Positions 35,948 to 64,000 of a DNA stretch of 64,000 nucleotides are shown piece after piece. Position numbers and translations under genes: made by a program. This DNA is from Dehalococcoidia bacterium (GTDB lineage: Bacteria > Chloroflexota > Dehalococcoidia > UBA2979): the NCBI GenBank assembly GCA_965262725.1, contig OZ253555.1:2496001-2560000 (forward strand), given 5' to 3'. Positions within the stretch are counted from its first letter, which is position 1. Every line of letters starts with the position of its first letter. The notes beneath the pieces were generated by a model. That model ran no database searches. It had not been told where the DNA came from and saw nothing but the letters and a program-made list of their open reading frames with translations.

Positions 35948-35973
35948 CGTTCCACCGCGAAGGTGTTCGCTCG

Positions 35974-41473: not shown

Positions 41474-41656
41474 ATGCTAGAGTCAGTCCTGCGTCGCACG
41501 GCTGAGAAGCTCGCCGCGTCGGGTGTGCTCGACGCCGCTGAGAACGCACGCCTGATGAGAGCGCTCGCCGACGGCCGCCTCAGGTCTATCGCCGAACTGA
41601 GCGCCTTCCTCGAGAAGCCCGCGGATACGGCCGAGGCCCAAACCGATGAAGATTAG
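41474..41656 (+). CDS. Small helical protein (60 aa) overlapping the ATPase start
   Basis: MLESVLRRTAEKLAASG...AQTDED overlaps the downstream ATG at 41646. Confidence 0.6.
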   Translation: MLESVLRRTAEKLAASGVLDAAENARLMRALADGRLRSIAELSAFLEKPADTAEAQTDED

Positions 41657-46293: not shown

Positions 46294-46704
46294 ATGACGC
46301 TCCCGCTCTGGGGTTCCATGGGAATCGAGTGCGGGATTCGTGCCGGGTTCCGGTGTGAGTACTGTGACCGTGATCTTCTCTCGTCGCTGGACGACTACAA
46401 GGCGTGGGCACAGGATCACATCGTTCCCGAGAGGCTCGGCGGCGCGGACACGATCGAGAAGATGGCTGTGTCTTGTGATCCCTGCAATTCTGCCTACAAG
46501 AAGGCATGGAACCCGCGCTCCGTGGCTGGCGCCACGGCAAGTCGCGCAGAACTGATCGCCGCCACCCGAAGACTCATCGCCGAGAAGCGCGCGGCAGAGC
46601 AGGCAGTGCTCACTGAGGTCCGCGAAGTCACGGGGTGGTCTCTCGCTGGGAGCCTGGAGCCATCACCGTCGCCGACGCCCGGCTCCGCAGCGGCGTCTCC
46701 GTGA
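46294..46704 (+). CDS. HNH endonuclease
   Basis: CEYC...DHIVPERLGGAD...SCDPCN. Its stop overlaps the next gene's GTG. Confidence 0.85.
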   Translation: MTLPLWGSMGIECGIRAGFRCEYCDRDLLSSLDDYKAWAQDHIVPERLGGADTIEKMAVSCDPCNSAYKKAWNPRSVAGATASRAELIAATRRLIAEKRAAEQAVLTEVREVTGWSLAGSLEPSPSPTPGSAAASP

Positions 46705-49700: not shown

Positions 49701-50129
49701 TACAGGGAGCGCCCGGAGTTCTATCCACCTCAAGGCGCTTCCATTGAGCAGTTCGACTTCGGCACGAACACGTGGCGAGACGTCGAGCGAATCGAACTGT
49801 CCGGTGCCTACCGGATCACCGCGGACACGCGTCACTATGCGGCTCTGGCTGACGACGGGCTGCGCGAATGCGGCAACGCGGTGTCGAAGTATGCGGGCGC
49901 TGCGGCGACGGGCCGGAGCATCATGTCGTACAGCGTCGGCGATGAGAGACTGACGTGCCTGCTCGGGGCGCGCCCTCCCGGCCTCTACGAGCGGGTGCTG
50001 GTTCTTTGCACGGGTGAACTGCCTCGATCACTTTCAGACGGGACGTCCGTCTATGAAGGGGTCCCGCCGGGAGTCGCCGCCTGGCTAGCAGCGAGTCTTG
50101 GCCCTCACTCTTGGGAGACAGGGAGTTGA
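46701..50129 (+). CDS. druH: Druantia type III DruH-like protein
   Basis: About 1140 aa, TGATG-coupled to a DruE-like helicase. PPFIAAL..AA..NYYGRL, PISQAL..DR..L.EFF..L.PG, LSALGYID...GAR. Call rests on size, context and recalled motifs. Confidence 0.65.
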   Translation: MTDVRAVEQSFGAIYAALNRLDEPGGSALRDHYALQSTRDGDREILSSVGAGSRMNMLIGARAQLSRSLGGGVSSGLADLVARVSALTGESPVSPEVCRTLASRVGGVDAADLPALLSALSGVQPAGWARWSAYDIWNESLIEEFFSGSRAGRPVYLDLEADVVERLTAAIGAPAGAAAPDATRAFSRSVVRTFEFRLDGPPMLREHVRKAVTWAASAPRGDGGEGHPGIRPPPFIAALGLFSLAAESMRSGEGMRATNYYGRLCERLEVGSDAVARKVQNDFRRHANRLWAHLNAWLRRAHGARGIPTAEAFDHRVYVSIPISQALVRAADRDRLSEFFSAYQLNPGQQFSRLDMREILAAWLPGSHLSASLKSLWRSSQEARRRIADVVCIELEHWDGTAPPEHSSSQRHFDAVLAASYEEVPFPEFSIALVVRDEGDVPDGRYRFDDGSALPGFSGAVHAVRESGGLIRLQPATPQSMGNGLLNSVLRHPLGLAHESRPATISRPSRSVVVFLMDESRGLFTESARVELGREHFILVRNGLAAQVRGALGEIARPGYRALSGVAGVPDGWMLYIGVHVRSLLTGASEALTTLVPLSTTQVDLTGGMQLSAGRWHSSSPPDVMAVDAAGRRFAVSLFDESGTSGEFVATPLGTHSGEARISLRELGLVDGNYRIVLNETTPSGGIGSHLTSRGLRLRSAESAHLDPPTDVCLAHQAGPSPDGWTALSATSLDVSSTAAIRGAAISGTEAGPRPVPPVRLPARLGRSVSVSDVGSLSRLFPRAHPAAIEAELEQLMRLHLVSVDDGKPRLTPAGYAYANEGLKSSGRAVTRAGTTPPDEIASRFEADLDLILDALGATGGGTWRSLEQLIRYSSVERWEPLEAARNLSALGYIDLELDHHSQRPLRWSAAPATMVVLPDGLSAFIAGARSEPLLQRVEAEARQLGGSMFRHERGGRPVLVQVHGLQGRAFETVAQRASLACVRDVPRRIAQMLPAIRDVYRERPEFYPPQGASIEQFDFGTNTWRDVERIELSGAYRITADTRHYAALADDGLRECGNAVSKYAGAAATGRSIMSYSVGDERLTCLLGARPPGLYERVLVLCTGELPRSLSDGTSVYEGVPPGVAAWLAASLGPHSWETGS

Positions 50130-53100
50130 TGTCGCAGCCGCGAGACGTCTACCGGCAGATCGCCGACGCGTACCTCCGGTACTACGACACCGCCTTCTGG
50201 GTGCGAACCCCCGAGGTGCGAGCCGAGCGCCGTCACTTGCTCGCTACGGAAGGGGTCATCACGCGAGAGCCCCTCCTGGAGCCGGTGCTTCCGTACCCTC
50301 CCGCGGAACCTCTCGCACAGGTGACCAGACGCGTTGGTCTCAGCCCGGGAGTCTCCGACACGCTGGCCAAGATGCTGTTCCCAGGGCTGGCGACCGGCGC
50401 GGCCTTCCGGTTGCGGGAGCACCAGGGGAGGGCACTAGAGCTCTCGCTCTCGGACGCTGGTGCGGGCCCGGTGAACCCCGTGATTACCACCGGAACCGGA
50501 TCAGGCAAGACGGAGAGCTTTCTGCTGCCAGTGTTCGCCCGCCTGCTGCGCGAGGCGGAGCAGAACGGCGGTTGGCGGGCGGACGCCAAGCCAGTTCACT
50601 GTTGGTGGGACGAAGCTGAGGGGTCGGCGTGGGAGCCGGTGAGAACCTCTCGCGAGGAACGGCCAGCCGCGGTTCGGGCGCTGATCCTCTACCCGACAAA
50701 CGCGCTCGTTGAAGACCAGATCACTCGAATCCGGAGAGCTATTCATATCGCGGCCCGCCCGGACCGGTCGGGGCCGCAGTTCTTCTTCGGGCGGTACACG
50801 GGTGAGACGCTCGGCGGGGCGCGCATCCAGCGGCCCGCTGCGCTCCGAGGCCAGCACGTCCTCCAGGTGGCACGCGAGGTCCGCCAGATGGCTGCCGACG
50901 CTGCGGGGCTCGCCGGCGAGCTCCGTGTGCAGTTCCCTGACCCGGTTCGCGGCGAGATGGTAACCCGCTGGGACATGGTCGCAGCGCCTCCGGACATCCT
51001 CGTGTCAAACTTCTCGATGCTCAACGTGATGCTGATGCGGGGCTTTGAGGATCCCCTCTGGGCACAAACTCGCGCCTGGCTGCGCGACGACCGAAACGTC
51101 TTCACTCTGGTTATCGACGAGCTTCACCAGCAACGCGGTACGCCCGGGAGCGAGGTTGCATTGGTCATCCGCAACCTGCTCATGCGGCTGGGCCTGGAGC
51201 CGGACTCCCCGCAGCTACGTTGCATCGGAACGAGTGCATCGCTGGAACCTGGGGGCCCCGCGTCCGGCGATGGGCTGCCCGAGGAATATCTCGAGCAGTT
51301 CTTCGGCGTCCCACGGAACCGGTTCGAGATCGTGCCCGGCACACCTGTAGTGCCGTCCTCAGAGCTCCCCCTACCGCGAACTCGCTTCGAGGAGATCGCC
51401 AGCCTAGAGGGAGCTGACCGCAGCGACGCGCTGCTCGATGCGGTTGAACGGTTCCAGCTGCCGGAGGCCGTTGCGTCGAGCTGCGCGGGATCACCGCCAC
51501 GCGCGACCGCGATCCGCGAGATCGAGCAGTCTCTCTTCGGGGATGTCGTGGAGGGGTCACCCGCCATGGATATTGCCCTCGAGGCTCTCGCAGCCCGGAC
51601 CCCGGACGCCGGGGCAGTGACCTTCCGGTCGCACATGTTCATCCGGAACGTGACCGGCTTGTGGGCCTGCTCAAACCCGAACTGCCGCGACCTCGACGAT
51701 CGGTGGCGGCACGCCGATCGCCGCATCGGCAGGCTCTTCACGTCCCCGACTCCGGCCTGTAGCTGCGGATCGCGCGTCCTCGAGCTCCTCTACTGCGAGC
51801 AGTGCGGTGAGGAATCGCTGGGCGGGATCGTGGTTGCCAGGGAGGAGACCGGCGGCTCGCCATCGTGGTACCTGGGCGCGGAGGAGGCAGAGTTCCCTCC
51901 CGTCCAGCAGGCTCGGGTCAACCAGCGGCTCTACGACCGCTACATGTGGTACCGGCCGGGGCCACCAGAACCCGGGACAGACGGATGGTCACACGACAGC
52001 ACCCGACTCGCGTTCGCGCCTGCTACCTGGATGCCCGAGGTTGGCCTCCTTCGCCGAACCCCGCCGGGGCGCGATCCAACGGGAACGATCCTCCTGGCGA
52101 GCGGCGCCCCAGATCCTGAGCATGGCGCCGTCCCCGCGATTCCCGAGCGCTGTCCGAATTGCGCTCATCGCCGCCACAACCGACCGCGAGACTTCTTCCG
52201 GGGTACCGTTCGAAGCTCTATCCGCGGGATGAGGACCGGTTTCGCGCGCGTCAGTCAGGTGGCGCTTGACCAGCTCATCCGAGCGCTCGCCCATGACGGT
52301 GGCGAACCGAGAACGATCGTCTTTTCCGACAGCCGTGATGAGGCCGCTGTGGCTGCCGCAGGGATCGAACTGAACCACTTCCGTGACTTGGTGCGCCAGC
52401 TCACGGACCGGTTGCTCGGCGAACAACGCTCGCTCCCCGCTCTCATGCTCTCAGCAGCCCATGGAAAGGACCCGAGCGGTAGTGAATCGGCCCAGCTCGA
52501 GCTCGCGAAGAGCGAGCACCCCGATGTCTGGGCCGCGTACCAGGCCGTGCACCGGTACGGCGTCGACGATGACTCGGCGCGGGCCGCGATCGGTGCCTTC
52601 GAAGAGGTCCAGGCTGGTACGGCCCAGAAGCTCTCGTGGGACGATCTCCTGCGCCGGCTTGAACGAGCACTCGTCGCGCTCGGAGTCAATCCCGCCGGTC
52701 CGGGGGCCAGCCACTCGCACTGGGGGCCCGGAAGGTCGTTCCGGTGGTGGCAGGCCTACGCCCCACCGACACCTGGAGCCTGGGAGGTCGCAGGTTCGGC
52801 GGTCGACCGCCGGGTACAGTCGGGCGAAGTGCGCGAGCAAGAGCTCTCCGTCACCCTGTTCTCGTCCCTCTTCGACTTCACGGCCCGGGACTTCGAGTCG
52901 CTCGGGCTCGGCTGGATCGAACCAACGCGGACCGGGCCTGCGTCCATCGGTTCTCTTTCGCCCGCGGAGACGCGAGAGCTGCTCCTCAGCGCGATTCGCA
53001 TCCTCGGTCTCGCTGGCACGTACCCCGGTGCGCGTTGGTTTACGGGCCGCGAGAACATGCCCGTGGCGCTGCGAAAGTACGTCCGCGCCGTCGCAGACCT

Positions 53101-55537
53101 CCACGGAGTTGCGGCCGAATCCCTGGCAAGCGAACTAGCAACCGCGCTTCGCGAGACGGGAGTGATCACGGAGCGATGGGCGCTGGACGCCTCCCACTTG
53201 CGCGTGGCCCGATGGTCACGCGGGGATAGCGCCCCGGTCCGCTGCATGACGTGTGCGCGTGTGCACCTGCATGAGTCTGCGGGGGTGTGCACGTCGCGTG
53301 AGTGCTACTCCACGCAGTTCGAGGCAGCTGACCTCGACCAGCGCGATGACGGCTACTTCGAATGGCTCGCCCGCACAGCACCCTTCCGCCTCCGGACGGA
53401 GGAGCTCACTGGCCAGACGAAGCCCCTCTCCGTGCAGCGCGCACGGCAGCGCTACTTCAAGCACGCCTTCAAGGAAGAACCTGCGGAGCATGCGCTGAGC
53501 CACGGTATCGATGTGCTCAGCGTCACCACGACGATGGAGGTCGGAGTCGACATCGGGAGCTTGCGCTCCATTGTGATGGCGAACATGCCGCCGCAGCGGT
53601 TCAACTACCAGCAACGCGTGGGACGCGCGGGACGGCTAGGCCAGCCGTACTCGTACGCCCTCACGGTCTGCCGGGATCAGACCCACGACGACTACTATTT
53701 CAACCACCCGGAGCGGATCACAGGTGACCGGCCTCCGAGCCCGTACCTCGACCTTGCTCGGGAGTCGATAGTGCAACGGGTGGTTGCGGCAGAGGTGCTC
53801 CGTCGCGCGTTCAGCACTCTCGAGCCGGGATTCGACGGCGGCGGGAACGTCCACGGCCCCTTCGGGGAGGCGTCGGACTGGGCCGCGAACCGCTCTCACA
53901 TCGCGGGCTGGTTGTCATCCGGCCCCGACGTGAGGGATGTCGCGGCCCGGCTCACCACGTACACGGGCGTCGAAGCCCGCCACCTCGAGGACTGGGTGCG
54001 GGGAGACCTCGTGGGAGAGATCGACCGGGCGCTGGACAACCCTGCGTACACCCACCCCGATCTCAGCGAGCGGCTCGCCAATGCAGGTTTGCTTCCAATG
54101 TTCGGATTCCCTACCCGGGTGCGTCCCCTCTACTGGCGCGAGCCGAGATCCGCCTCAGATATCGAAAGCGCGATCGTCGCGGATCGGGATATCGAGCTGG
54201 CTGTCTCCAACTTCGCACCTGGGTCGGAAGTCGTGAAGGACAAGCAGAAGCACACAGTGGTTGGGTTCGCTCACTGGATCCCCTCCGGTGGACGTGCTAT
54301 CCAGGTTGACGACCCCCTCGGCGACGCTCATCCGGTGCTGCGCTGCACGCATTGCGGCGCTGTCGCGGTACGGGAGGGTGCCTCGGCTACATGTCCGGTG
54401 TGCGACCGAACCGCTGATACGTTCGATATGTACGAGCCGCAGGGGTTCAGAACGGACTTCCGTCCTCAGGACTTCGACGATCGCTTCGAGAGAGGTCCGG
54501 CATCCGCCCGGCCGCAGCTGGGGCTCAACGCCCCGGCGCGGGGGCACTTCCGGACGGGGGCGGTCGAGGTGAGCGTATTCGAGGCAGCCGACGTGTTCAC
54601 GATCAATGACAACGGCGGGAGGCTGTTCGGGCTCAAGCGCCGCGGGAAGTCCGTGCTCGTCGAGGATCCCGCCCTCTACGCGGATCCTCCATACGGTATC
54701 CAAGTCGGCCAGGATCCCCCCGACATCAGGGCTGCTATCGGTTCAGTCCGGCGAACGGACGCGCTCACGGCGACTCTCGTAGACCTGGCCCTTCCTGGTG
54801 GCTTGCGCGTGATCAGTACGCGGAGGCCTCCTGGGACCGCACTCGCGCCGGGACTCGCAGCTCTCCTCTCCTACGCGGCACTCCTGCGCGTGACCGCCGC
54901 GCAGGAAGTCCTCGATATCCGAGCCGCGGAACTCCAGGTTGGACTGCAACCGGTCAGGGTAGATGGTGATCTCACGCAGCGGATCTTCCTCGCCGACGAT
55001 CTGGCGAACGGAGCGGGCTACGCATCATTCCTCGGGAGCCACACCGAAATGCAGCGCCTGCTGCGGCAAGCGCTCCAGCTCGGCCAATCCTTCGAGCGTC
55101 AGCCGCACGCGTCGCGGTGCGGGGGCTCGTGTCCCGACTGCCTGCGCAGCTACGACAACAGGTGGCTCCATCCAGCCCTTGACTGGCGGCTTGCGCTCGA
55201 TGTCGCGGAACTGGCTGCGGGCGAACCGCTGCACGATGAACGCTGGCTGCGCACCGTTCCCGCGCACATCGACGCGTTCCTCTCTGGCTACTCGGGCGCA
55301 GCGCTGCAGCCAGTGCAGCTCGGACCGCTGGCGGGGATCCTGCACGCGGATCTCCGACGGGCCGTGTTCATCTCACCGCCGCTGTGGCCGTTCGAGAGCC
55401 AGTACTACGCTGAACAGCAGGCCGAGGCGCAGATCGCGGCGTCGATGATGGGGGCTGAAGCCCTCTCCTTCGATGCGTTCTCGTTCGGGAGACTGCCGAG
55501 CCGTGTTTTCGCGTGGCTGAGAGGGGGCACCCTGTGA
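50129..55537 (+). CDS. druE: DEAD/DEAH-box helicase with DUF1998 domain, Druantia DruE-like
   Basis: YLRYYDTAF, TGTGSGKTESF, LYPTNALVEDQ, IDELH, TSAS, FSDSRDEAA, TTTMEVGVDIG, YQQRVGRAGR, C-terminal ANGAGYA...CGGSCPDCLRSYDN. Confidence 0.82.
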   Translation: MSQPRDVYRQIADAYLRYYDTAFWVRTPEVRAERRHLLATEGVITREPLLEPVLPYPPAEPLAQVTRRVGLSPGVSDTLAKMLFPGLATGAAFRLREHQGRALELSLSDAGAGPVNPVITTGTGSGKTESFLLPVFARLLREAEQNGGWRADAKPVHCWWDEAEGSAWEPVRTSREERPAAVRALILYPTNALVEDQITRIRRAIHIAARPDRSGPQFFFGRYTGETLGGARIQRPAALRGQHVLQVAREVRQMAADAAGLAGELRVQFPDPVRGEMVTRWDMVAAPPDILVSNFSMLNVMLMRGFEDPLWAQTRAWLRDDRNVFTLVIDELHQQRGTPGSEVALVIRNLLMRLGLEPDSPQLRCIGTSASLEPGGPASGDGLPEEYLEQFFGVPRNRFEIVPGTPVVPSSELPLPRTRFEEIASLEGADRSDALLDAVERFQLPEAVASSCAGSPPRATAIREIEQSLFGDVVEGSPAMDIALEALAARTPDAGAVTFRSHMFIRNVTGLWACSNPNCRDLDDRWRHADRRIGRLFTSPTPACSCGSRVLELLYCEQCGEESLGGIVVAREETGGSPSWYLGAEEAEFPPVQQARVNQRLYDRYMWYRPGPPEPGTDGWSHDSTRLAFAPATWMPEVGLLRRTPPGRDPTGTILLASGAPDPEHGAVPAIPERCPNCAHRRHNRPRDFFRGTVRSSIRGMRTGFARVSQVALDQLIRALAHDGGEPRTIVFSDSRDEAAVAAAGIELNHFRDLVRQLTDRLLGEQRSLPALMLSAAHGKDPSGSESAQLELAKSEHPDVWAAYQAVHRYGVDDDSARAAIGAFEEVQAGTAQKLSWDDLLRRLERALVALGVNPAGPGASHSHWGPGRSFRWWQAYAPPTPGAWEVAGSAVDRRVQSGEVREQELSVTLFSSLFDFTARDFESLGLGWIEPTRTGPASIGSLSPAETRELLLSAIRILGLAGTYPGARWFTGRENMPVALRKYVRAVADLHGVAAESLASELATALRETGVITERWALDASHLRVARWSRGDSAPVRCMTCARVHLHESAGVCTSRECYSTQFEAADLDQRDDGYFEWLARTAPFRLRTEELTGQTKPLSVQRARQRYFKHAFKEEPAEHALSHGIDVLSVTTTMEVGVDIGSLRSIVMANMPPQRFNYQQRVGRAGRLGQPYSYALTVCRDQTHDDYYFNHPERITGDRPPSPYLDLARESIVQRVVAAEVLRRAFSTLEPGFDGGGNVHGPFGEASDWAANRSHIAGWLSSGPDVRDVAARLTTYTGVEARHLEDWVRGDLVGEIDRALDNPAYTHPDLSERLANAGLLPMFGFPTRVRPLYWREPRSASDIESAIVADRDIELAVSNFAPGSEVVKDKQKHTVVGFAHWIPSGGRAIQVDDPLGDAHPVLRCTHCGAVAVREGASATCPVCDRTADTFDMYEPQGFRTDFRPQDFDDRFERGPASARPQLGLNAPARGHFRTGAVEVSVFEAADVFTINDNGGRLFGLKRRGKSVLVEDPALYADPPYGIQVGQDPPDIRAAIGSVRRTDALTATLVDLALPGGLRVISTRRPPGTALAPGLAALLSYAALLRVTAAQEVLDIRAAELQVGLQPVRVDGDLTQRIFLADDLANGAGYASFLGSHTEMQRLLRQALQLGQSFERQPHASRCGGSCPDCLRSYDNRWLHPALDWRLALDVAELAAGEPLHDERWLRTVPAHIDAFLSGYSGAALQPVQLGPLAGILHADLRRAVFISPPLWPFESQYYAEQQAEAQIAASMMGAEALSFDAFSFGRLPSRVFAWLRGGTL

Positions 55538-55651: not shown

Positions 55652-55830
55652 TGACCGGACCCCTTCGCGAGGCTACCGCTATGAGAGTCCACCCGATTGT
55701 TCCGCCCTCCATTGCTCGGCGTAGGTAGCCGGGGAGAGCCAGCCCACGCTGATGTGCGGCGCGTCGTGCTGTACTCGATCCACCAGTCCTCGATCAGCAC
55801 CTGCGCCTCGAGCAGGCTGTCGAACCGCAT
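55652..55830 (-). pseudogene. IS3-family transposase 3' remnant with right end
   Basis: FDSLLEAQVLIEDWWIEY / H.SVGWLSPATYAEQW, with terminal GGGGTCCGGTCA. Confidence 0.75.
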
Positions 55831-56975
55831 TGCGCTGTGAGCCACGCGCGGTAGCCCGCAACTTCGTAGCGGGCATCGGTCAGCAACCGTTCCGTCTCGC
55901 CGATCAATTCTTCATTCAAGTCCGGCTGCTGTTCAAGGGTGGTGTCGACATCTAGACGGCGGGTTGAGCGCTTCACGATGGCCTTCGCGGTTGCGCACTC
56001 ATCTACCGATGCCGGCGCGGCCAGCGAGAACGCGTCTGGCGACGCTGCGATGACCGGATCGAAGCGAAGGGCGAACGAGACCAAGTCCTCCCGGACGGCA
56101 ACGGGATCGATTCGGTACCCATGTGTGCTTGCGAGCTGGACGCGACTGGGACCATAAACCTGCACCAGCGCCGACAGCCACTTGCAAATGGCAGCGGTCA
56201 TGAGAATGAGAAGGTCGGCCTCGCTGCACGTCGCAGGATCAATGGACTCCACATCCGATTCCAGTAGCTCCTCGCACGCTTCGGCGAATCCCTCGCAGTT
56301 GGCGACATTCTCACGAAAAAGACCCATGAGCCGCTGCTCGGCACCTGCGTCAAACATCCCACGTCCTATCCTCGTCGTGATGAGCAGAAGCCATGGGTTG
56401 TGGTTTCGCGCTTGAAAAGCCGTCAGCTGCGCCAGTGCCTCGTAGATCGATCCGCCGCTCTGCGGCGACTCGGATGCAAGCCCGTCGCAGAGGTCAATGT
56501 TGACAACATCGAACGGGCCGAGCTGCTCGGTCCGAGACCACGCGATCGACTTCGGATTGCCGATGCGCCGGAAATCATCGTGAATTACCCTGGACTGCGG
56601 ATCGACATTTGGCAGCCGCCGTACTTCGTCGAGCGAAACGCTCAGTTGGAGGTGCGCGGAGTTGCCGGGCTGCGCTTCCGTGTTGAATCCAAGGAAGCGC
56701 AGTGGGCGGTCGGTCGCTCGGCAAAGCTCCTCGTGCAGGTACCGCAGATCGATCAAGTCTGTACCAGGCAGGCCCAAGTAACGCAGCGGATCCCCCGGTT
56801 CCCGCTTCTCGTAGAGGCGCCGGAGCAAGACTGACAACTGCTCGCGCCGGACGAACTGCTTGCGTGGCCTGTGCCACGACTTGAACTCCTTCGGTTCCGC
56901 CTGCGTAGGCAGATATTCGATACCGCCAAAGATTCCTGCGATTAGATCGTCATGATCGCCCGATTGCTCGGTCAT
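55794..56975 (-). CDS. Uncharacterised protein with a SAM-methyltransferase-like fold (recalled as 'PP_RS20740 family')
   Basis: WHRPRKQFVR, YLGLPGTDLIDLR, FLGFN, FDVVNIDLCD. ATGA overlap with the upstream ATPase. The last few codons run into the IS3 remnant. Confidence 0.7.
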   Translation of the reverse strand: MTEQSGDHDDLIAGIFGGIEYLPTQAEPKEFKSWHRPRKQFVRREQLSVLLRRLYEKREPGDPLRYLGLPGTDLIDLRYLHEELCRATDRPLRFLGFNTEAQPGNSAHLQLSVSLDEVRRLPNVDPQSRVIHDDFRRIGNPKSIAWSRTEQLGPFDVVNIDLCDGLASESPQSGGSIYEALAQLTAFQARNHNPWLLLITTRIGRGMFDAGAEQRLMGLFRENVANCEGFAEACEELLESDVESIDPATCSEADLLILMTAAICKWLSALVQVYGPSRVQLASTHGYRIDPVAVREDLVSFALRFDPVIAASPDAFSLAAPASVDECATAKAIVKRSTRRLDVDTTLEQQPDLNEELIGETERLLTDARYEVAGYRAWLTAQCGSTACSRRRC

Positions 56976-59020
56976 TGATCGGACGTCTCGAGGATCTGAC
57001 GCATCCCGGAGAGGAGCCGTTCCTGCTGCTGGTCGGTCAGGCCCTCAAAAACTCCATACGCGGCGAGGACCTGGACGATCGTGCGCAGCTTACGCTCGGC
57101 TGAATCGCCCCGGCGCGTGCCCCGCCGGTCGAGTTCGCGGAAGACCGGCTCGCGCCTGAACCGATACGCTCCGGGCCTGGCAGGTGTCAGCTCGTCGGCC
57201 TCATCGGCGAAGTCGACCGGCGGCGGTTCCGCGCCTGGATCGTCGGACTCGTCCCGCCATGCTCGGGCTGCGACACTCGACAGAGCCTCCTCTTCCTCGT
57301 CCGCGGCGGCCTCGCGGGTAGCTGTGCGGATTGCAGCCGCGATGCGCTTCTGAACCGTCGCCACGCGCCTGAGCGACGCGTGGAGCCACTGCGTGAGGTA
57401 TACGACGTGTGGATGGGCGTAATTGAACGACTCACGATCGATGTTCAGCGCCGCTTCCAGACCCTCCGAGACAAATATCTCACACGAGATCTGCCTCAGC
57501 CGCGTCTGCTCGGATACCTGATACCGCAGGAACGTCGGGTCGAACAGCGTTCCGCTCGATCCGTGAACCCGGACGAGAACGCCCTGATGCTCGGTAGGAG
57601 CGATCTTCGGCGCCCACATGAGGTATGCCTCGAACTCAAGTGGGCCGCCAGTGAGTTCGGGCGGCACGCCGTCGAATTCCTCTCGGCATCGTCCGACGAC
57701 GAGGATCGGCTTCTTGACTGCGTGGCTCGTCTCAGGGAGATTCCTGAACAAGAGGGGACGAGCGAGCCGCAGGTCGTCGACGAGTACAGTGAAGTCGCTC
57801 CCGACATCGGCTGCAGAGCCGATCGACTTGCTCAGGCGAATTGTCTCGTCGTCGGTGAGTTTGAACTCGGCTGCTGCTTCTCTGATGGACTGCGGCATTT
57901 CGAAGAGACGGAGCTCGTCCTGAAGCAGAAGGTCGAATGGGTTACCCGAGACGTACGGCGCGGGAATAGCCAGACTCAGCTGCCACACCATCCGGAGGTA
58001 GTAGTCAAAGATGCGTTCGAGCTGGGGGTTGGGTGTTCCTCGCTCAACGCGCTGCCATACAGCCTTGACCAGCTTCTCGAAGGCGACCTCTGGTCGATCA
58101 TCGCGAGACCACGGGAGGCTGCTGTAGGCATCGGCGTCATTCTGGAGAACACCGGCGTCATCCGGCCGCACGCGCCCGATGTGGAAGTCAGGCGGCCTGA
58201 GGTCCCGGTTCCTCGCTTCGCTAGGCGCCAAGGCGGGGTCGGAATCGATAACCGCCCACAGGTCACGGCTCTGGAGCCTGTCGCGAGTCTGCGGCCGTAT
58301 GTCAGTGAGGATGATCGTCGTACCGTGCGAGTGGGCGTCGGAAGCTGGCTCGCGCCAGATCGTCACCCGCCCCGCCTCGTACGCCCCTTCTTCGTTCGGC
58401 CTAGGCGCACCCTCGTCCGAGTATTGGCGGAGCACGACCGATGCGATGGTCCGGAAGGGATCACCAGCTGTCGTCGTGATGATCTGGAAGCGGTGGGTCA
58501 GCTGGGCGACTGAGAAGAGGCCGATCCCAATCTTCCCGATGAGTCGGCGCCCCGACGGGCTGAGCGCTAAGTCCGTGGTACTCGCGATTCCAAGCTCGGC
58601 TCCATCGGGTGACCGCTTCGCGCTGCCCCCGATGTGGTGGAGCAGGTGGGCAAGAGCGGCGGGTGTCATACCCATGCCGTCGTCCTCCACCGACAGCGCG
58701 TGGAACCGGGGTCGATCGGTCTTTATGACTACCTGTTTCGCATCTGCGTCGTAGGCGTTCGACACAAGCTCCCGTATCGCCGACCCCGGCTGCCGGTAGA
58801 TGCCGTCAGTGACACGGGCAAGAACCTGCTCGTCTGTCCGGAGAACGGTGCTGACGGGGGATTCGCTGGAGCTGACTGCTATATGGGCAGCGAGGACGGC
58901 GTCCTCCTCGCGTCGTGGATCGTGCGCCGGGGTCACCGATTCCCCCAGCTGCGCGGATGGAGAGGATCCAGCGCTTGTCGCCGTGGGGGCCGCACGGCCG
59001 CGATCCATGCCGACGAGCAT
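56972..59020 (-). CDS. MORC-type GHKL ATPase
   Basis: IYRQPGSAIRELVSNAYDADA, EDDGMGM, IGGSAK, IGKIGIGLFS, HGTTIIL, S5-like GVLVRV...CEIFV...ALNIDRESF. Start uncertain (59020, 59008 or about 58936). Confidence 0.88.
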   Translation of the reverse strand: MLVGMDRGRAAPTATSAGSSPSAQLGESVTPAHDPRREEDAVLAAHIAVSSSESPVSTVLRTDEQVLARVTDGIYRQPGSAIRELVSNAYDADAKQVVIKTDRPRFHALSVEDDGMGMTPAALAHLLHHIGGSAKRSPDGAELGIASTTDLALSPSGRRLIGKIGIGLFSVAQLTHRFQIITTTAGDPFRTIASVVLRQYSDEGAPRPNEEGAYEAGRVTIWREPASDAHSHGTTIILTDIRPQTRDRLQSRDLWAVIDSDPALAPSEARNRDLRPPDFHIGRVRPDDAGVLQNDADAYSSLPWSRDDRPEVAFEKLVKAVWQRVERGTPNPQLERIFDYYLRMVWQLSLAIPAPYVSGNPFDLLLQDELRLFEMPQSIREAAAEFKLTDDETIRLSKSIGSAADVGSDFTVLVDDLRLARPLLFRNLPETSHAVKKPILVVGRCREEFDGVPPELTGGPLEFEAYLMWAPKIAPTEHQGVLVRVHGSSGTLFDPTFLRYQVSEQTRLRQISCEIFVSEGLEAALNIDRESFNYAHPHVVYLTQWLHASLRRVATVQKRIAAAIRTATREAAADEEEEALSSVAARAWRDESDDPGAEPPPVDFADEADELTPARPGAYRFRREPVFRELDRRGTRRGDSAERKLRTIVQVLAAYGVFEGLTDQQQERLLSGMRQILETSDQ

Positions 59021-59582
59021 CGAAGGCCCGTCACCCCTCGGGGGTCCGAGTCCGCGTCCAGCAGGGGCGGCGTGAAGTGGAGACCAGCGGCGTTCTCGAC
59101 GATGTGCGAACCCGCCAGCGCTCCGCGCTGGCGGTCGAGGGCGTAGCTCGTTTGAAGAAGGTAAGGGGCCATTTCACCCTGTCACACCCACCCCACTCTA
59201 CAGGGACGATGTGGACAGTAGCTTCGCGAGGAGCGCTGGTTTCCGCCAGATGGCGATGACGTCCGCGCGTTTATGCGAGGTTACACACCGCCCCCCGACG
59301 GGAGGTGATGGTGGAGGCCCTCAACGGGGTCGGGCATTCCGATACACTGCGCTACAGGTCGAGGCCCGACGCGGGGCCAGAATCAGGTTCCGGGCTGAGT
59401 CCGCATCGTTCTCGCGTGGCGGAGTAGCGGCGAGACCTGAACCCGCCCCGGCTCCGAGGGTGGCTGCGCCAGCTCTTAGGTCGAGCAGCCCCCGGAGAAG
59501 AAGGCGCACGGAACCGGCATCGGCGGTGCGGTTGTGCTTACCATGATCCGGGCTGCCTCTCGGTCGGAATGCTGAGGACTGA

Positions 59583-61388
59583 ATGCAAGTCAGATCGCTT
59601 GTCGGCGCTGGACTGATCTCCCGTATCGACGAGTTGCTGGAGGCCCGGTACCGGTCCGCTGATCTGGGGAACATGGAAGATCCTCTGGACGAGACCATGT
59701 ACATCCTGCTGAGCAGGCAGACGCAGGAACCTGTCTACAGGCGGATGTACCAGAACCTCCGGCGCTGCTATCCGAGCTGGAATGACGTGCTTCAGGCTCC
59801 GGAAGAGCACCTGTCCCTTCTACTGCGCCCGGCAGGGCTCCATGAGCAGAGAGCTCGGCAAGTGAAAGCTCTACTTGCGGCAGTGCAAGAGGAGAACCGT
59901 CGGCGGGGTGTCGGGCCGGCCGCAATACCTGCAACCGACCTGACCCTCGACTTTCTCCGGACGCTCGGTGACGAGGAGGCTGAACAGTTCCTGATCCGAC
60001 TGCCGGGCATCGGCCCGAAGAGCGCACGCTGTGTCCTAGCGTATTCGCTCAACCGTCCCGCGTTCGCTGTCGACACGCACGTTCACAGGGTGTTCTCCCG
60101 GCTGGGCCTCGTCACACCGGCCGGAAGGAAGAAGGATCACGACCCATTCCAGGACGCGGTTCCCAAGGGTGCTCGGAAGCGGTTCCACATCAACCTCATC
60201 CACCACGGACGCGCGATCTGCCGTGCCAGAAGGCCGAAGTGTGGGGATTGCGTCCTCGTGTCGTTCTGCCCGGAAGGGCGCAAGACCGTAGCCAACAACG
60301 GGCGTCCCGCCGTGGTTGATCTCTTCGCCGGGGCTGGTGGCCTCGGCTATGGCTTCAGAAAGGCTGGCTTCCGTGTGGCACTTGCTGTCGAGTCAGACCG
60401 GCATGCGGCGCAAACCTATCGCCTGAACAACCCGGGTGTCCCCGTGATAGAGGCCCAGATCGATGCAACCACCTCATCACACCAGCTAGCCCGCTTCATG
60501 CCTGGCGTCGAGCAGGTCATGGGACTCCTCGCGGGTCCGCCGTGCCAGGGATACTCAGCCGCCGGTGCGCGTGACCCCGATGCCGAAGGGAACTTCCTGT
60601 ACCGGCAGGTCGCGAGGCTGGCAGCGGAGCTACGGGCTGAGACCGTCTGCCTCGAGAACGTTCCAGGCGTACGGCGCGTCAGGGGCCACGGCTTCCTTGA
60701 CTCCATCCTACAGAGCCTCCGCGACGCGGGCTTTGCGACCGATGCTCACCTGGTTAATGCCTGCGACTTTGGAGTCCCACAGCACAGGGCACGCTATCTC
60801 TTCCTCGGGCGCCGAGGCGAAGGAACATCCCCTCCTCCTGGACCGGGTGCAACACACCGCTCCCACGGGGAGGCCGCACCGAGCCACCTGCCGGAGGTCC
60901 CCACTCTTCGCGATGCACTCGCCGCCCTGCCCGAACTTCCCGCCGGCACCACTGGAGAGCCCGTAACAGGGCCCGACGGTAGGGAGTACTTCAACGTTGA
61001 GACGATGGCACACTCGGAGCGTGTGGTGGCCAAGATCAGAGGGATCAAGCCTGGTGAGGGCCCCATCTCGTACAGACGCCTCAAGGACGATGAAGCGCGC
61101 ACGTTGATCGCTGGGCACCGCGCCCTTCCCGTCCATCCATGGCTTGACCGGACCATCTCGGTGCGTGAGGCGGCGACCATTCAGGGGTTTCCGCATCACT
61201 ACCGTTTTTCCGGACCCCGTTCAACCCAGCCTCTCCAAGTGGCTAACGCAGTTCCGCCACCGCTTGCGGAGGCTGTCGCCCTCCACCTGATGCGGGTGAC
61301 CAAGGAGGGTCGCGCACCCGCGGACCCTTCCGAGGCCGCAGCCGCTGATGCCAACGGAGCAGGTCCGCGCCAGCCGCCCGAAGCCTGA
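59583..61388 (+). CDS. Fusion of an HhH-GPD [4Fe-4S] DNA glycosylase (Nth-like) and a DNA (cytosine-5) methyltransferase
   Basis: N-terminal LSRQT, LPGIGPKSA, AVDTHVHRV, CRARRPKCGDCVLVSFC. C-terminal DLFAGAGG, GPPCQGYS, ENVPG, GVPQHRAR, RTISVREAATIQGFP, QVANAVPP. One uninterrupted frame. Confidence 0.92.
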   Translation: MQVRSLVGAGLISRIDELLEARYRSADLGNMEDPLDETMYILLSRQTQEPVYRRMYQNLRRCYPSWNDVLQAPEEHLSLLLRPAGLHEQRARQVKALLAAVQEENRRRGVGPAAIPATDLTLDFLRTLGDEEAEQFLIRLPGIGPKSARCVLAYSLNRPAFAVDTHVHRVFSRLGLVTPAGRKKDHDPFQDAVPKGARKRFHINLIHHGRAICRARRPKCGDCVLVSFCPEGRKTVANNGRPAVVDLFAGAGGLGYGFRKAGFRVALAVESDRHAAQTYRLNNPGVPVIEAQIDATTSSHQLARFMPGVEQVMGLLAGPPCQGYSAAGARDPDAEGNFLYRQVARLAAELRAETVCLENVPGVRRVRGHGFLDSILQSLRDAGFATDAHLVNACDFGVPQHRARYLFLGRRGEGTSPPPGPGATHRSHGEAAPSHLPEVPTLRDALAALPELPAGTTGEPVTGPDGREYFNVETMAHSERVVAKIRGIKPGEGPISYRRLKDDEARTLIAGHRALPVHPWLDRTISVREAATIQGFPHHYRFSGPRSTQPLQVANAVPPPLAEAVALHLMRVTKEGRAPADPSEAAAADANGAGPRQPPEA

Positions 61389-61597
61389 ACTACCCCCGCA
61401 ACACGTAGTGGCTGGGTTGCTGCCTGGACGCACTCCGCCCACGGTCCGAACGGGGGCGGCTGGGCCGCGCTCATACGAAGCGGCCGACCTGCGAGTCAGT
61501 CGCGGCGCGGCACTCGTGTAACGCGGCGAGTGTGGGGAACGGGCCGAGCGCAGGACGCACAGCGACAAGACGCGGAGGTTCGCGATGTCAGCACTCA

Positions 61598-61737
61598 CTA
61601 GTGTCCCGAGTTGCAAATGCTGAAAACAATCGCACCGAGCCTCGCAGGCCTGGTCCGCTCAGTGGAGGCTTGGGTCGCAACTGGAAACGAGCACCGGAGG
61701 CGCTTCATCTCGCACAAACCGCCGACCAGATCCTTGA
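61598..61737 (-). pseudogene. Possible IS630-family transposase 3' remnant (intron 3' exon)
   Basis: KDLV...FSICNSGH* ending in GGGACACTAG, resembling IS630 C-termini and ends. Confidence 0.4.
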
Positions 61738-62514
61738 GTAGGGTCAGGGGCTGGCGCGGTGCGAGCCGTAGGCGGTGGCGCATATTGCCAGGCCGGTTTC
61801 CCGGTGGCGCCCATCTCCACAGCCGTAGCATCGTCCGTCTCCAGCCCCTGCCGCCTCGAACCGGACGTGAGGTTTTCCCTCATCCGGCTCACCGATGCCC
61901 TTCACCGGGCGGCATGCGGGGTGCCCCGCCACGGTCGATATGGCCGTGGTGCCACGACGCGCTGTCCAGCTAGCGAGATGAGCCCCAGACGGTCGGCGAC
62001 GGGAAACGGGTGCCCGCGATGGCGTCGCCGCCAACGCAACCGCTTCCCCAGCCAGAGTTTGAGTCTCCACATGGCAAACCAGTGCAGGACGTCGAACGCC
62101 CTCGCCGAGTTGCCGTAGCGGAAGTAGCTCATCCAGCCGCGGAGGTAGCGATTGACTTCCTCCACGACCTGCCGGGGACTCAGCAGCAGACGCAACCGCG
62201 CCGTGATTTCACGGATGCGGTCCCGCGCCCGCTGCATCGCTCGCCGTGAGGGCCAGCGTGCGAGGAACTGGATATTCTTGTTGCGCTTCGCACGTACCCA
62301 GCGATGCTCGAAGCCGAGGAACTCCAGCCCCTCGCCTCCCTCCCGCAGGTGCACGATGCGCGTCTTCTCCGCCTTGAGCTCCAGTCCGAGCTCACCCAGC
62401 AGGTCACGCAGCAGGGCCAACGCCCGCTCCGCTTCCTCCCGGCTCCGGCAGAGCACCACGAGGTCATCCGCATAGCGCACCAGCACGCCATCACCCTTCG
62501 CCTCCCAGTCCCGG
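61738..62514 (-). mobile_element. 3' part of an RT-encoding group II intron
   Basis: Domains V/VI nearly identical to those at about 41180-41347, ending CCCTAC at 61738. Confidence 0.88.
61902..62514 (-). pseudogene. ltrA: Group II intron reverse transcriptase/maturase, C-terminal part, interrupted by IS21
   Basis: LVRYADDLVV, LGLELKAEKT, FLGF, maturase NRYLRGWMSYFRYGNS. No endonuclease domain. Confidence 0.88.
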
Positions 62515-64000
62515 TGGGAATGATGCTCTGAATTGGCCCCACCTGGAGCCGTTTTGATCCTTTGAATTGGCCCCACCCCCGACCCATCCAGGATCTACGC
62601 TCGGGTGACTGCATGACTCCCGGAGCGAGGGAAGAGGAGTGTGTCGAGAGTGGAGCTGTTCGAGTCTATCCGACGGATGGCGAGGGAGGAGGAGCTGTCG
62701 ATCCATGAGCTGGGACGCCGGCATGGCGTGCACCGGCGCACGGTGCGGCAGGCTCTTGGGTCGGCGATACCCCCGGAACGCAAGCAGGCGACCCGCGTGG
62801 CCCCGAAGCTCGGGCCGTACGTCTCGGTCATCCGGGGCTGGCTCGTGGACGACCTCAGCGCGCCGCGCAAGCAGCGGCACACGGCCCGGCGCATCTGGGA
62901 GCGCCTCGTCGACGAACACGGGGCGACGGTGGCCGAGCCCACGGTCCGCGCCTGCGTCGCGCGCCTGCGTCGCGAGATCCAGGGCGGGCGCGCGGTTGTG
63001 ACGATCCCGCAGGTCCATCCTCCCGGCGAGGAGGCGGAGGTCGACTTCGGCACGGTGACGGTGTGGCTGGAGGGCGTCGAGACCCGGCTGGCGATGTTCG
63101 TGATGCGGCTCTCGCATTCGGGGCGGGCGGCGCACGTCTGCTTCGTCGGCGAGGGCCAGGAGTCTCTGCTCGAGGGGCACGTGGTCGCCTTCGAGCGGCT
63201 CGGCGGAGTGCCGCGGCGCATCCGCTACGACAATCTGACGGCGGCCGTCACCACCGTGCTGCAGGGACGCGAGCGCCTGCAGACCGAGCGCTTCATCGCG
63301 CTCCGCTCGCATTACGGCTTCGACAGCTTCTTCTGTGAGCCCGGCATCGAGGGCGCGCACGAGAAGGGCGGTGTGGAGGGCGAGGTCGGCCGCTTCCGCC
63401 GGCGGCACTTCGTGCCGGTCCCGAAGGTGGCGACCCTCGGCGAGCTGAACGAACGAGTGCGGGAGGCGGACCGCACCGACGACGCCCGGCACATCGAGAG
63501 CCGCCTCGCCACCGTCGGCGAGATGGGAGAGAACGAGAAGGCCTCGCTGCGTCCGCTTCCGGCGGAGCGCTTCGACCCGTCAATCCCGCTGCGCGCGAAG
63601 GTCGACCGCAAGGCGCGCATCGCCGTGCGTAGCTCCCGCTACTCGGTCCCGGCGGCCTATGCAGGCCGGAAGCTGGACGTGCGGCTGTCCGGGAACAGCC
63701 TGACCGTGTGGGCCGAGGGGCGTGAAGTCGCCCACCACGAGCGCAGCGCCCGCACCGGAGCAGAGGTCCTGCTGCTCGACCACTATCTGGAGGTGCTCGC
63801 GCGCAAGCCCGGGGCGGTCCCGGGCTCGGTGGCGCTCCAGCAGGCGCGTGCGAAGGGACACGTCACAGCCGAGCATCAGCGCTTCTGGGACCGCGCCCGC
63901 CGCAAGCTCGGCGACCGCGCGGGCACGCAGGCGTACATCGAGGTCCTGCTCCTGCATCGCCATCTTCCCTTCACGGCGGTGCACGCCGCGCTCGGGACGG
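62515..64000 (+). mobile_element. IS21-family element (left end, runs off the window)
   Basis: Starts TGGGAATGATG, with TGAATTGGCCCCACC repeated at 62529 and 62563. Confidence 0.85.
62641..64000 (+). CDS. istA: IS21-family transposase IstA (partial, runs off the window)
   Basis: Translated by hand: MSRVELFESIRR..GVHRRTVRQAL..PRKQRHTARRIWERL..GEEAEVDFG..IRYDNL..HEKGGVEGEVG. GAGGAG RBS. Confidence 0.92.
   Translation, partial: MSRVELFESIRRMAREEELSIHELGRRHGVHRRTVRQALGSAIPPERKQATRVAPKLGPYVSVIRGWLVDDLSAPRKQRHTARRIWERLVDEHGATVAEPTVRACVARLRREIQGGRAVVTIPQVHPPGEEAEVDFGTVTVWLEGVETRLAMFVMRLSHSGRAAHVCFVGEGQESLLEGHVVAFERLGGVPRRIRYDNLTAAVTTVLQGRERLQTERFIALRSHYGFDSFFCEPGIEGAHEKGGVEGEVGRFRRRHFVPVPKVATLGELNERVREADRTDDARHIESRLATVGEMGENEKASLRPLPAERFDPSIPLRAKVDRKARIAVRSSRYSVPAAYAGRKLDVRLSGNSLTVWAEGREVAHHERSARTGAEVLLLDHYLEVLARKPGAVPGSVALQQARAKGHVTAEHQRFWDRARRKLGDRAGTQAYIEVLLLHRHLPFTAVHAALGT

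Follow-up and report, generated by a model that had tools for sequence, protein, structure and literature searches.

[quoted passage not shown] On balance, the glycosylase half is probably a built-in, Vsr- or Mig-like module that repairs T:G or U:G damage at the sites on which the enzyme itself acts. Methylation of cytosine at C5 causes mutations, against which bacteria, according to textbooks, have a separate Vsr gene; the fusion family suggests a second, widespread remedy in the form of a base-excision enzyme placed inside the methylase. The first-pass annotation had left three readings side by side. Among these, the self-repairing methylase is favored by complementarity with Vsr, by decay of the glycosylase active site beside Vsr and by the occurrence of fusions in both domain orders, whereas no findings came to favor a combined writer and eraser of methylation or a glycosylase-based restriction enzyme.

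Table 1. Features of the fusion gene and its neighborhood, in positions of the window.
Feature	Positions	Strand	Basis
DruF with DruL-like C-terminal part, 1164 aa	46635..50129	+	profile search
DruE, 1808-aa Druantia helicase (DEAD, Helicase_C, MZB domains)	50111..55537	+	Pfam, PADLOC
PP_RS20740-family protein, 393 aa	55794..56975	-	profiles, fold search
GHKL (HATPase_c_3) ATPase, 682 aa, divergent from the fusion	56972..59020	-	profiles, neighborhoods
GAGGA, putative Shine-Dalgarno-like element, ATG 4 nt further on	59574..59578	+	inferred by eye only
Fusion ORF, 601 aa, EndoIII-like glycosylase and C5 cytosine methyltransferase	59583..61388, stop included	+	open frame, Pfam, homologs, bridging contigs
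Glycosylase half, residues 1-238, HhH-GPD/EndoIII type	59583..60296	+	profiles and structure-sequence matches
HhH motif LPGIGPKSA, residues 140-148 (K146 codon 60018-60020)	60000..60026	+	sequence, alignments
D164 codon (VDTH), catalytic Asp position	60072..60074	+	sequence, alignments
Predicted Fe-S cluster loop C213-X6-C220-X2-C223-X5-C229	60219..60269	+	sequence, Pfam, alignment
C5-MTase domain, residues 244-568 (PCQ Cys321 codon 60543-60545; ENV 60654-60662)	60312..61286	+	profiles, alignment, fold matches

Architecture, authenticity and kinship of the fusion

The N-terminal half matches the Pfam family HhH-GPD (PF00730) over residues 42–180 with 47.9 bits (cut-off 26.2) and the EndIII Fe-S motif (PF10576) over residues 213–229 with 20.5 bits, exactly the cut-off. 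With its HhH motif, catalytic Asp and predicted [4Fe-4S] loop, it is assigned by sequence to the HhH-GPD/endonuclease III superfamily. The C-terminal half matches DNA_methylase (PF00145) over residues 244–568 (169.1 bits, cut-off 22) as well as TIGR00675 (131 bits, cut-off 100.65), and its fold matches include 3G7U, M.HaeIII and DNMT1. Motifs I (DLFAGAGG), IV (GPPCQ, with C321), VI (ENV, residues 358–360), VIII (QHRAR), IX (REAATIQGFP) and X (ANAVPPP) can be recognized, and this half reads as a complete C5-MTase. The initial description of one open frame with both halves intact holds, as do the individual glycosylase and methylase motifs that were named, every one of which is legible in the sequence. 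Across an alignment of 18 sequences (58–90% identity), K146, D164, C213/C220/C223/C229, C321 and ENV are invariant, and 30 of 55 classifiable related loci retain the Lys and the Asp, which argues for selection on both halves. A Foldseek search of the PDB with a model of the whole fusion (pLDDT 77) returned C5-methylases only, with no solved chain spanning both domains and no clue to the substrate. A promoter and terminator scan of positions 58900–61700 yielded nothing informative.

Both Pfam domains occur in all but one of the best 120 database homologs, the exception being a protein of 373 aa (P0092), and the junction is bridged without insertion or deletion by contigs from three studies. Contigs X1 and X2 are identical and may represent the source sample; identity extends over positions 59400–60550 in X5, and X6 differs over positions 59492–61385 by 116 substitutions with 0 gaps. 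Because the fusion is kept in homologs and contigs cross it without indels, the junction is no assembly error and the gene is genuine; the stop or frameshift between the domains that the first-pass annotation had entertained is not present, all three studies reading through.

The fusion is found in Chloroflexota, many Actinomycetota, Acidobacteriota, Planctomycetota and other taxa, often in genomes without Vsr. Cultured organisms that carry it belong to Actinomadura, Spirillospora, Catenulispora and Actinoallomurus. Among 29 long representative matches to the N-terminal half, the glycosylase precedes the MTase in 17, the MTase precedes the glycosylase in 5 (P0201, P0206, P0222, P0234, P0235), 1 has the order HTH-glycosylase-MTase and 6 are without an MTase. 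In the proteins with swapped order both domains are homologous by BLASTP and the Lys, Asp and Cys residues are kept; glycosylase and C5-MTase appear to have been joined more than once. Of 13 distant relatives in which the glycosylase stands alone, none was found near a C5-MTase. Plasmids searched by tblastn contained no close relative of the fusion (best match 27% identity, on a haloarchaeal plasmid), and phage records contained distant standalone EndoIII-like genes only. A search of article full texts returned no description of a bacterial HhH-GPD–C5-MTase fusion, an earlier mention in a review being possible; the joint matches for the Pfam accessions among those listed (10 of 17) were plant DNMT/DME surveys.

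Comparison with solved structures points to the EndoIII-1 and EndoIII-3 enzymes of Deinococcus radiodurans as the closest relatives of the glycosylase half (E 2e-30 over residues 9–229 and E 1e-22, respectively), followed by MIG (1KEA; E 5.8e-11, residues 136–230). K146 aligns with the HhH-motif Lys (GVGVKTA) of EndoIII-1, which we take to be the catalytic Lys position of EndoIII. This Lys of bifunctional glycosylase/AP lyases suggests strand cleavage. The canonical Nth equivalog TIGR01083 scores 89.8 bits (cut-off 211.7), over residues 135–220 only, and the best NCBIfam model, NF053634 for DR2438-type monofunctional glycosylases, stays at 114.8 bits against a cut-off of 400 (residues 17–229). 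Kinship to the DEMETER/ROS1 enzymes, as first proposed, did not survive this comparison: full-domain similarity is absent, and the ROS1 match (7YHQ) is limited to a 58-residue HhH segment (residues 120–177, E 2.5e-7). Membership in the MIG family was likewise rejected in view of Lys146 in place of Tyr and of an E-value far behind that of EndoIII-1. In MIG the HhH Lys position is occupied by Tyr126, as the Y126K work shows (PMC9945173). In a study of the Deinococcus enzymes, EndoIII-1 is reported as a weak, mostly monofunctional thymine-glycol enzyme despite its HhH Lys, and activity of EndoIII-3 was undetected (PMC10523315). The genome that contains the window has four other HhH-GPD genes.

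Defense-system neighborhood

The first-pass annotation overlooked the defense setting of the gene, whose neighbors include DruF/DruE and the pair with the GHKL ATPase. The fusion lies 4 kb downstream of DruE, with the two opposite-strand genes of the GHKL pair in between, and is the only C5-MTase within 850 kb. The GHKL ATPase is the paraMORC-like partner that accompanies the fusion in its closest relatives, and the C-terminal two thirds of the protein match unnamed clusters only. The PP_RS20740-family gene is always found downstream of the GHKL gene; the predicted fold of its product gives weak Rossmann SAM-methyltransferase-like matches (E about 1e-5, TM 0.3–0.5). Profile and fold searches identified no nuclease in the window's GHKL module, comprising the GHKL and PP_RS20740 proteins.

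Druantia, DISARM-like, GHKL or SspH-like genes adjoin 29 of the 30 intact-fusion loci, the remaining locus being a 5.4-kb contig. Druantia genes are present at 12 of these loci, DISARM-like DrmA/NERD-helicase sets at 11 and GHKL(+PP_RS20740) genes at 5, while an SspH-like giant gene occurs at 3, 2 of which also have a DISARM-like set. The glycosylase is linked to the methylase and not to one effector. Against the PADLOC profiles, the MTase half matches DruM2 (1.4e-56) and DrmMII (4e-42), with generic type II MTase profiles scoring higher. The modification components of Druantia and DISARM-like systems are poorly studied, and for this reason the fusion, as the methylase of many such systems, is relevant to the way in which they contain the cost to themselves.

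In the window, the fusion would be the modification enzyme of a phage-defense island. Its C-terminal half is expected to methylate cytosine C5 at a target sequence and so mark host DNA as self, and the systems served would be the GHKL-ATPase and PP_RS20740 pair and probably also the DruF-DruE Druantia module. GHKL/paraMORC restriction-modification operons are reported to combine, as a rule, a cytosine methylase with a Vsr-family gene (Iyer et al., PMC2292703); by analogy, the fused glycosylase would fill the Vsr slot of these operons.

Vsr complementarity and decay of the glycosylase

A Vsr profile search over six frames found no match in the window, in agreement with the earlier observation that no vsr is visible there, and a search with PF03852 found none in the 3.67-Mb genome (marker completeness 91.6%) or in the fusion protein itself. 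Among the related loci, an own Vsr gene lies within about 10 kb of 0 of 31 intact fusions (window included) versus 10 of 25 decayed relatives (Fisher p 9e-5, kinship ignored), where decayed means that the N-terminal half is degenerate, truncated or a remnant and no longer has the catalytic Lys or its HhH part. All 8 neighboring Vsr matches that were checked are PF03852. At L009, the one intact fusion with a Vsr in the vicinity, that Vsr overlaps the beginning of another MTase, a plain one with a GHKL gene of its own. Three of four full-length Lys-less proteins (L032, L038, L049) have Vsr adjacent, and L032 is nested among the intact sisters L028–L030. At the level of whole genomes, Vsr is present in 13 of 30 with an intact fusion versus 18 of 20 others (p 0.001), and 10 of the 14 Vsr genes located elsewhere in intact-fusion genomes have another C5-MTase, one without a glycosylase, within 5 kb.

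The complementarity is not strict. No Vsr lies within 10 kb of 15 of the 25 decayed forms, the genomes of two of them (L037, L040) have no Vsr at all, and the sister genomes L028 and L029 have, at a distance of about 11 kb from the fusion, a Vsr gene that lacks a plain MTase within 5 kb. Only 6 well-supported independent contrasts are available on the MTase tree, with Vsr distributed as predicted in about 3.5 and in the opposite way in none; over these 6 contrasts the independent-pairs sign test is not significant (median p 0.25). The decay series constitutes a natural experiment that leads from intact forms to proteins without the Lys, then to proteins without the HhH half and finally to a remnant with the Fe-S loop, Vsr genes emerging in parallel. 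The Fe-S loop is kept in relatives without the remaining glycosylase, namely truncated forms and the remnants L040, L060, L061 and L076. Because it outlives the decay of the rest, the loop region also seems to serve the methylase, either structurally or in DNA binding.

Possible roles of the glycosylase and comparison with known systems

We infer that the N-terminal half would perform in cis the job done for other C5-methylases by a separate Vsr endonuclease or MIG glycosylase. Where deamination of 5-methylcytosine or of the target cytosine has left a T:G or U:G mismatch, it would cut out the T (or U), and this excision would initiate base-excision repair of the damaged strand. Sequence context for the glycosylase probably comes from the methylase half; substrate, lyase activity and cis-targeting are predictions from sequence. 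If the recognition domain of the methylase directs the glycosylase, the protein would be of practical interest as a mismatch glycosylase with sequence specificity.

The nearest characterized relatives act on oxidized pyrimidines and not on mismatches, and the N-terminal half might be an ordinary EndoIII for such oxidative damage or an Fe-S DNA-binding scaffold, with no specific link to methylation damage. This is rather unlikely. Retention of the Fe-S loop alone in truncated forms and remnants would fit a structural role, and the distant standalone relatives are unlinked to methylases, but the genome is already supplied with other HhH-GPD genes and a scaffold would not hold K146 and D164 invariant. 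Neither the repeated fusion to a C5-MTase in both orders nor the loss of catalytic residues beside Vsr would be expected. A further counterpoint to mismatch repair is that the known mismatch enzymes of the superfamily are without the Lys kept in the fusion. Lys and Asp are combined in the bifunctional DME/ROS1 enzymes, and with the domain fused to a writer, the glycosylase might excise 5-methylcytosine as these do, so that one protein sets and removes the mark. Such an activity is highly improbable, given that the ROS1 likeness covers the HhH segment only whereas EndoIII-1 aligns over the full length, that the defense system would lose its self mark in a futile cycle, and that replacement by Vsr, which acts on T:G, would be unexpected for an eraser.

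Vsr complementarity fits any common function, and equivalence to Vsr alone is no proof of repair because the Vsr-family genes of GHKL operons have been treated as predicted endonucleases of the Vsr superfamily (Iyer et al., PMC2292703). The glycosylase/lyase half might instead attack invading DNA, for example at target sites that are unmethylated or carry some other mark. The resulting abasic sites or nicks would be restriction damage or entry points for the DruE, DrmA or GHKL machines, and the Vsr genes of relatives would then do the same job. Existing base-excision restriction enzymes (PMC10273834) offer a precedent for this unlikely role, the fusion is always found in defense modules built on large helicases, and the kept Lys146 suggests strand cleavage. 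It is likewise doubtful that Druantia, DISARM-like and GHKL defense uses the glycosylase as its first blade, guided by sequence in that the target-recognition domain of the methylase steers it to unprotected or mismatched sites. The defense modules persist in the 25 relatives with an inactive or absent glycosylase, including the 15 without Vsr within 10 kb; the modules are mutually unrelated, while the glycosylase follows the methylase; and most Vsr genes elsewhere in the genomes (10/14) adjoin plain methylases. An effector role is also weakened because excision of normal unmethylated cytosine is not known to us for any HhH-GPD enzyme. If true, it would mean base-excision restriction inside multi-gene defense systems and a natural site-specific glycosylase.

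Several known systems can be set beside the fusion. Relatives carry it in the position of DruM of Druantia type II, in the order fusion-DruF-DruE (L011, L012, L033) or, as a variant, DruF-DruL-DruE-DruK-fusion (L021, L059), and others carry it beside DrmA, comparable to DrmMII of DISARM class 2. Unlike the fusion, the PADLOC DruM profiles (329–424 positions) have no glycosylase part. EndoIII-1 (DR2438, 4UNF) and EndoIII-3 (4UOB) of D. radiodurans share the HhH Lys, VDTH and the Cys cluster; they are standalone enzymes with reported activities on thymine glycol or none, whereas the glycosylase of the fusion is joined to an MTase and scores far under the DR2438-model cut-off. DEMETER/ROS1 belong to the same superfamily and also have Lys and Asp, but only the HhH segment can be aligned, and their discontinuous domain and plant-type extensions are absent from the fusion. 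Mig.MthI (1KEA), a T:G mismatch glycosylase, is, like the fusion, an Fe-S HhH-GPD enzyme associated with a C5-methylase, although it is a separate gene, encoded beside M.MthTI on plasmid pFV1. R.PabI has a fold that differs from that of the HhH-GPD glycosylases. Its family also places a glycosylase in a restriction-modification setting (PMC10273834); R.PabI is separate from its methylase and its restriction role is shown, whereas such a role would be hypothetical for the fusion.

Under the preferred reading of built-in repair, the fusion resembles the Dcm-Vsr pairs, in that a C5-methylase is coupled in both to a starter of T:G repair, an action that is predicted for the fusion. The Vsr gene of relatives sits exactly where the glycosylase has decayed. 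The likeness to Vsr is one of function and not of family membership: Vsr is a backbone cutter of unrelated fold encoded by a separate gene, whereas the counterpart here is a fused HhH-GPD base-excision enzyme.

Architecture and kind of glycosylase

The fusion of an HhH-GPD/EndoIII-type glycosylase with a C5-methylase is encoded by a single open reading frame, preceded by GAGGA 4 nt upstream of its ATG, and both halves are intact in Pfam domains and catalytic residues, as the first-pass annotation had read them. Every motif listed there is present: LPGIGPKSA (K146), VDTH (D164) and C213-X6-C220-X2-C223-X5-C229 in the glycosylase, and I DLFAGAGG, IV GPPCQ, VI ENV, VIII QHRAR, IX REAATIQGFP and X ANAVPPP in the methylase. 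Both Pfam domains occur in all but one of the best 120 database relatives (identity down to 59%), and an 18-sequence alignment shows no variation at the catalytic residues of either half. Furthermore, no stop or frameshift separates the domains, the junction being bridged without insertions or deletions by contigs of three sequencing studies. Contigs X1 and X2 are identical in sequence and possibly represent the source sample itself, X5 is identical to the window across 59400-60550, and X6, from a ~94% identical strain, differs by 116 substitutions, without gaps, over 59492-61385. The fusion is no artefact.

When the N-terminal half (residues 1-238) was compared against all solved structures, its closest relatives were two unusual endonuclease III paralogues of D. 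radiodurans, EndoIII-1 (E 2e-30, residues 9-229) and EndoIII-3 (E 1e-22, residues 31-231). Canonical Nth matched the last 100 residues only (E 2.5e-19), the T:G mismatch glycosylase MIG (1KEA) residues 136-230 (E 5.8e-11), and MutY reached E about 1e-7. The best NCBIfam model, DR2438-type, scores 114.8 bits, far below its cut-off of 400, and the score for the nth equivalog is likewise under cut-off. Because both cut-offs are missed and EndoIII-1 and EndoIII-3 are the best matches among solved proteins, the glycosylase is, by sequence comparison, a subfamily of its own within the EndoIII superfamily.

An exhaustive search with this half returned 9165 representative proteins at E < 1e-3, 217 of them at < 1e-30. 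Among the best 150 matches, 29 longer proteins were scanned with Pfam, revealing the order glycosylase-methylase in 17, methylase-glycosylase in five and HTH-glycosylase-methylase in one; the methylase was absent from the other six. In BLASTP, two proteins with swapped order (P0222 and P0234) are homologous to the fusion in both domains (glycosylase 35-38%, methylase 30-32% identity) and retain the Lys, the Asp and the Cys cluster. That the two domains came together repeatedly, and in either order, speaks for a functional link of this clade of glycosylases with C5-methylases. None of 13 loci of distant, mostly archaeal standalone glycosylase relatives (25-36% identity) contains a C5-methylase. 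On a haloarchaeal Natronobeatus plasmid (NZ_CP101457.1, 124898-126238), a gene annotated dcm aligns with fusion residues 28-458 at 27% identity, covering parts of both domains; the architecture may be present on archaeal plasmids.

Defence modules around the fusion

Features of the window and domains of the fusion
Feature	Position	Strand	Remarks
Cas3g	33158-36067	-	PADLOC; type I-U/I-G CRISPR-Cas effector
Cas5/6g, csb2-like	35974-37383	-	PADLOC; type I-U/I-G CRISPR-Cas effector
Cas7g, csb1-like	37383-38576	-	PADLOC; type I-U/I-G CRISPR-Cas effector
AAA/ABC-type ATPase	41646-44084	+	812 aa
DruF with DruL-like C-terminal part	46635-50129	+	one 1164-aa protein
DruE	50111-55537	+	full-length
PP_RS20740-family protein	55794-56975	-	NCBIfam 346.9 bits
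GHKL ATPase	56972-59020	-	682 aa; divergent from fusion
Fusion	59583-61388	+	601-aa open reading frame
HhH-GPD	fusion residues 42-180		Pfam, 47.9 bits
EndoIII Fe-S motif	fusion residues 213-229		Pfam
DNA_methylase	fusion residues 244-568		Pfam, 169.1 bits
Group II intron reverse transcriptase/maturase fragment	61902-62576	-	RVT_1 C-terminal part and GIIM
Gene with Mu-transposase C-terminal domain in product	62641-63999	+	after the intron fragment

The CRISPR-Cas genes together with the Druantia and GHKL modules make the region a defence island. No DruK follows DruE in the window; two related loci (L021 and L059) have separate DruF, DruL, DruE and DruK genes. Across the window and 77 related loci, only the window combines Druantia genes and the GHKL/PP_RS20740 pair beside one fusion methylase. 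The model of the PP_RS20740-family partner (pLDDT 82) has a Rossmann fold like that of class I SAM-methyltransferases; its Foldseek matches are weak (E about 1e-5), a protein atlas places it close to a putative O-methyltransferase family, and its YLGLPG.D motif is invariant. No nuclease was found in the GHKL and PP_RS20740 module. The 812-aa ATPase, whose N-terminal matches are LmuB-, PtuA- and GajA-like, is possibly another defence gene, and the intron fragment and Mu-transposase-domain gene, which come immediately after the fusion, point to mobile DNA at the island edge. The only other C5-methylase of the genome (L001, 357 aa, C1:1705884-1706882) lies 850 kb off, with neither Vsr nor recognisable Pfam neighbours within 1.5 kb.

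The 77 related loci, found by scanning a single genome of each species, are distributed over Chloroflexota, many Actinomycetota, Acidobacteriota, Planctomycetota and others, with Actinomadura, Spirillospora, Catenulispora and Actinoallomurus as cultured carriers. A multi-gene defence module adjoins 29 of the 30 fusion loci that keep Lys and Asp (hereafter intact); the remaining one lies on a 5.4-kb contig. Druantia genes accompany 12 of them, the fusion standing at the DruM position in L011, L012 and L033 and last, after DruK, in L021 and L059. Eleven carry a DISARM-like set (DrmA, NERD/UvrD helicase and two further proteins), and five a GHKL ATPase, four with a PP_RS20740 gene, including the three closest relatives (85-90% identity). 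An SspH-like giant gene occurs in three, two of which also have the DISARM-like set. This gene (1735-1899 aa, SspH- and DndH-like matches) adjoins the fusion in Spirillospora (L028), Actinomadura (L029) and a Frankiaceae MAG (L031), the last also carrying a second, plain DruM-like methylase. By its genomic context, the fusion is the predicted methylase of defence systems.

Decay of the glycosylase and distribution of Vsr

Each related methylase was classed by its residues at the positions aligned with K146, D164 and the four Cys. Thirty are intact. Four have lost the Lys at full length (K to D in L032 and L037, K to C in L038, K to T in L049), 17 have lost the HhH half and kept the Cys loop (L039, L041-L047, L050-L055, L057, L058, L067), and four retain the Cys loop alone in a short N-terminal remnant (L040, L060, L061, L076). 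The methylases of the last two groups, which form a decay series of the glycosylase half, measure 447-565 aa and lack either the HhH-Lys region or almost all of the domain. The four-cysteine Fe-S loop, directly N-terminal of the methylase domain, persists in all decayed forms, suggesting that this segment also has a structural or DNA-binding function.

GHKL (MORC/paraMORC) restriction-modification operons, as described by Iyer et al. (PMC2292703), commonly hold a cytosine methylase and a gene of the Vsr (very-short-patch repair endonuclease) family. A profile built from three Pfam-verified Vsr proteins detected Vsr genes in 14 related loci, and all eight checked passed PF03852. It has no match in the window, in agreement with the first-pass annotation, and the genome has no Vsr either. 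Left out of the following counts were L042 (duplicate of L039), L056 and L064 (frameshifted), L048 (N-terminal fragment), L062, L063 and L066 (truncated at contig ends), L065 and L068 (too divergent for alignment) and the standalone glycosylase loci. An own Vsr within about 10 kb accompanies 0/31 intact fusions (window included) vs 10/25 decayed ones (Fisher p 9e-5, kinship uncorrected). Genome-wide, PF03852 is present with 13/30 intact vs 18/20 decayed forms (Fisher p 0.001, kinship uncorrected), absences being soft since the completeness of those genomes is not given. Without intact locus L016 (genome G008, flagged unpublished), the intact counts become 0/30 and 12/29, respectively.

The sole Vsr close to an intact fusion is in L009, where it overlaps the start of a plain C5-methylase (385 aa); a GHKL ATPase belonging to that methylase (661 aa) comes next. 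This Vsr is therefore assigned to the second system (13543-17754), which directly adjoins the fusion and its GHKL/PP_RS20740 pair; the MAG chromosome carries two fusion copies (L009, L010). Elsewhere in intact-fusion genomes, a different, glycosylase-less C5-methylase lies within 5 kb of 10 of the 14 Vsr genes. In L028 and L029, the intact fusion has a Vsr at a distance of about 11 kb, with no plain methylase close to that Vsr. Of the 25 decayed forms, 15 lack a Vsr within 10 kb, and for two of these 15 no Vsr turned up anywhere in the genome. On the methylase-domain tree, the intact/decayed state changes at least nine times, six on well-supported branches; in these six independent contrasts Vsr behaves as predicted in about 3.5 and oppositely in none (sign test median p 0.25). 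The direction is consistent, in a sample that is too small. Equivalence to Vsr means a shared role and does not itself show which role.

Proposed role and relation to known systems

The fusion is probably best read as a self-mark methylase with built-in repair of T:G and U:G deamination products, judging from comparative sequence data. The C-terminal half would methylate host DNA, labelling it as self for the defence modules next to the gene, and the N-terminal half would remove T or U from mismatches arising by deamination at methylated or targeted cytosines. Base removal would start base-excision repair on the damaged strand, like Vsr or MIG elsewhere, and Lys146 suggests that strand cutting may occur too. 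C5-methylases bind mismatched target sites tightly, so the methylase half could plausibly guide the glycosylase to the appropriate positions.

A part in general oxidative repair, or as a scaffold, is unlikely for the glycosylase half. DrEndoIII1 is reported to be weak and largely monofunctional, with thymine glycol as substrate and activity on single strands as well, and no EndoIII activity was detected for DrEndoIII3 (PMC10523315); these nearest relatives therefore say little about the fusion's substrate. The genome encodes four further HhH-GPD genes, making the fused glycosylase an extra copy. That it acts as an effector in restriction is quite improbable: the adjacent effector modules are mutually unrelated while the methylase-glycosylase pairing is constant, which suggests a function linked to methylation as such and not to a particular killing mechanism. 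A 5mC eraser is hardly to be expected; the closeness to DEMETER/ROS1 proposed at first did not hold up, the ROS1 match being a 58-residue HhH segment (E 2.5e-7, vs 2e-30 for EndoIII-1).

Database sources label fusion homologs cytosine methyltransferases only, and no description of a glycosylase-methylase fusion was found in the full-text literature, one likely review lying outside the search coverage. The pairing of a C5-methylase with a deamination-repair enzyme is a principle already known. What appears new is the fusion of an EndoIII-type, Lys-bearing glycosylase into the C5-methylase, its wide distribution and predicted use as modification enzyme by Druantia, DISARM-like and GHKL systems, and the apparent decay of the fused glycosylase where Vsr is present.
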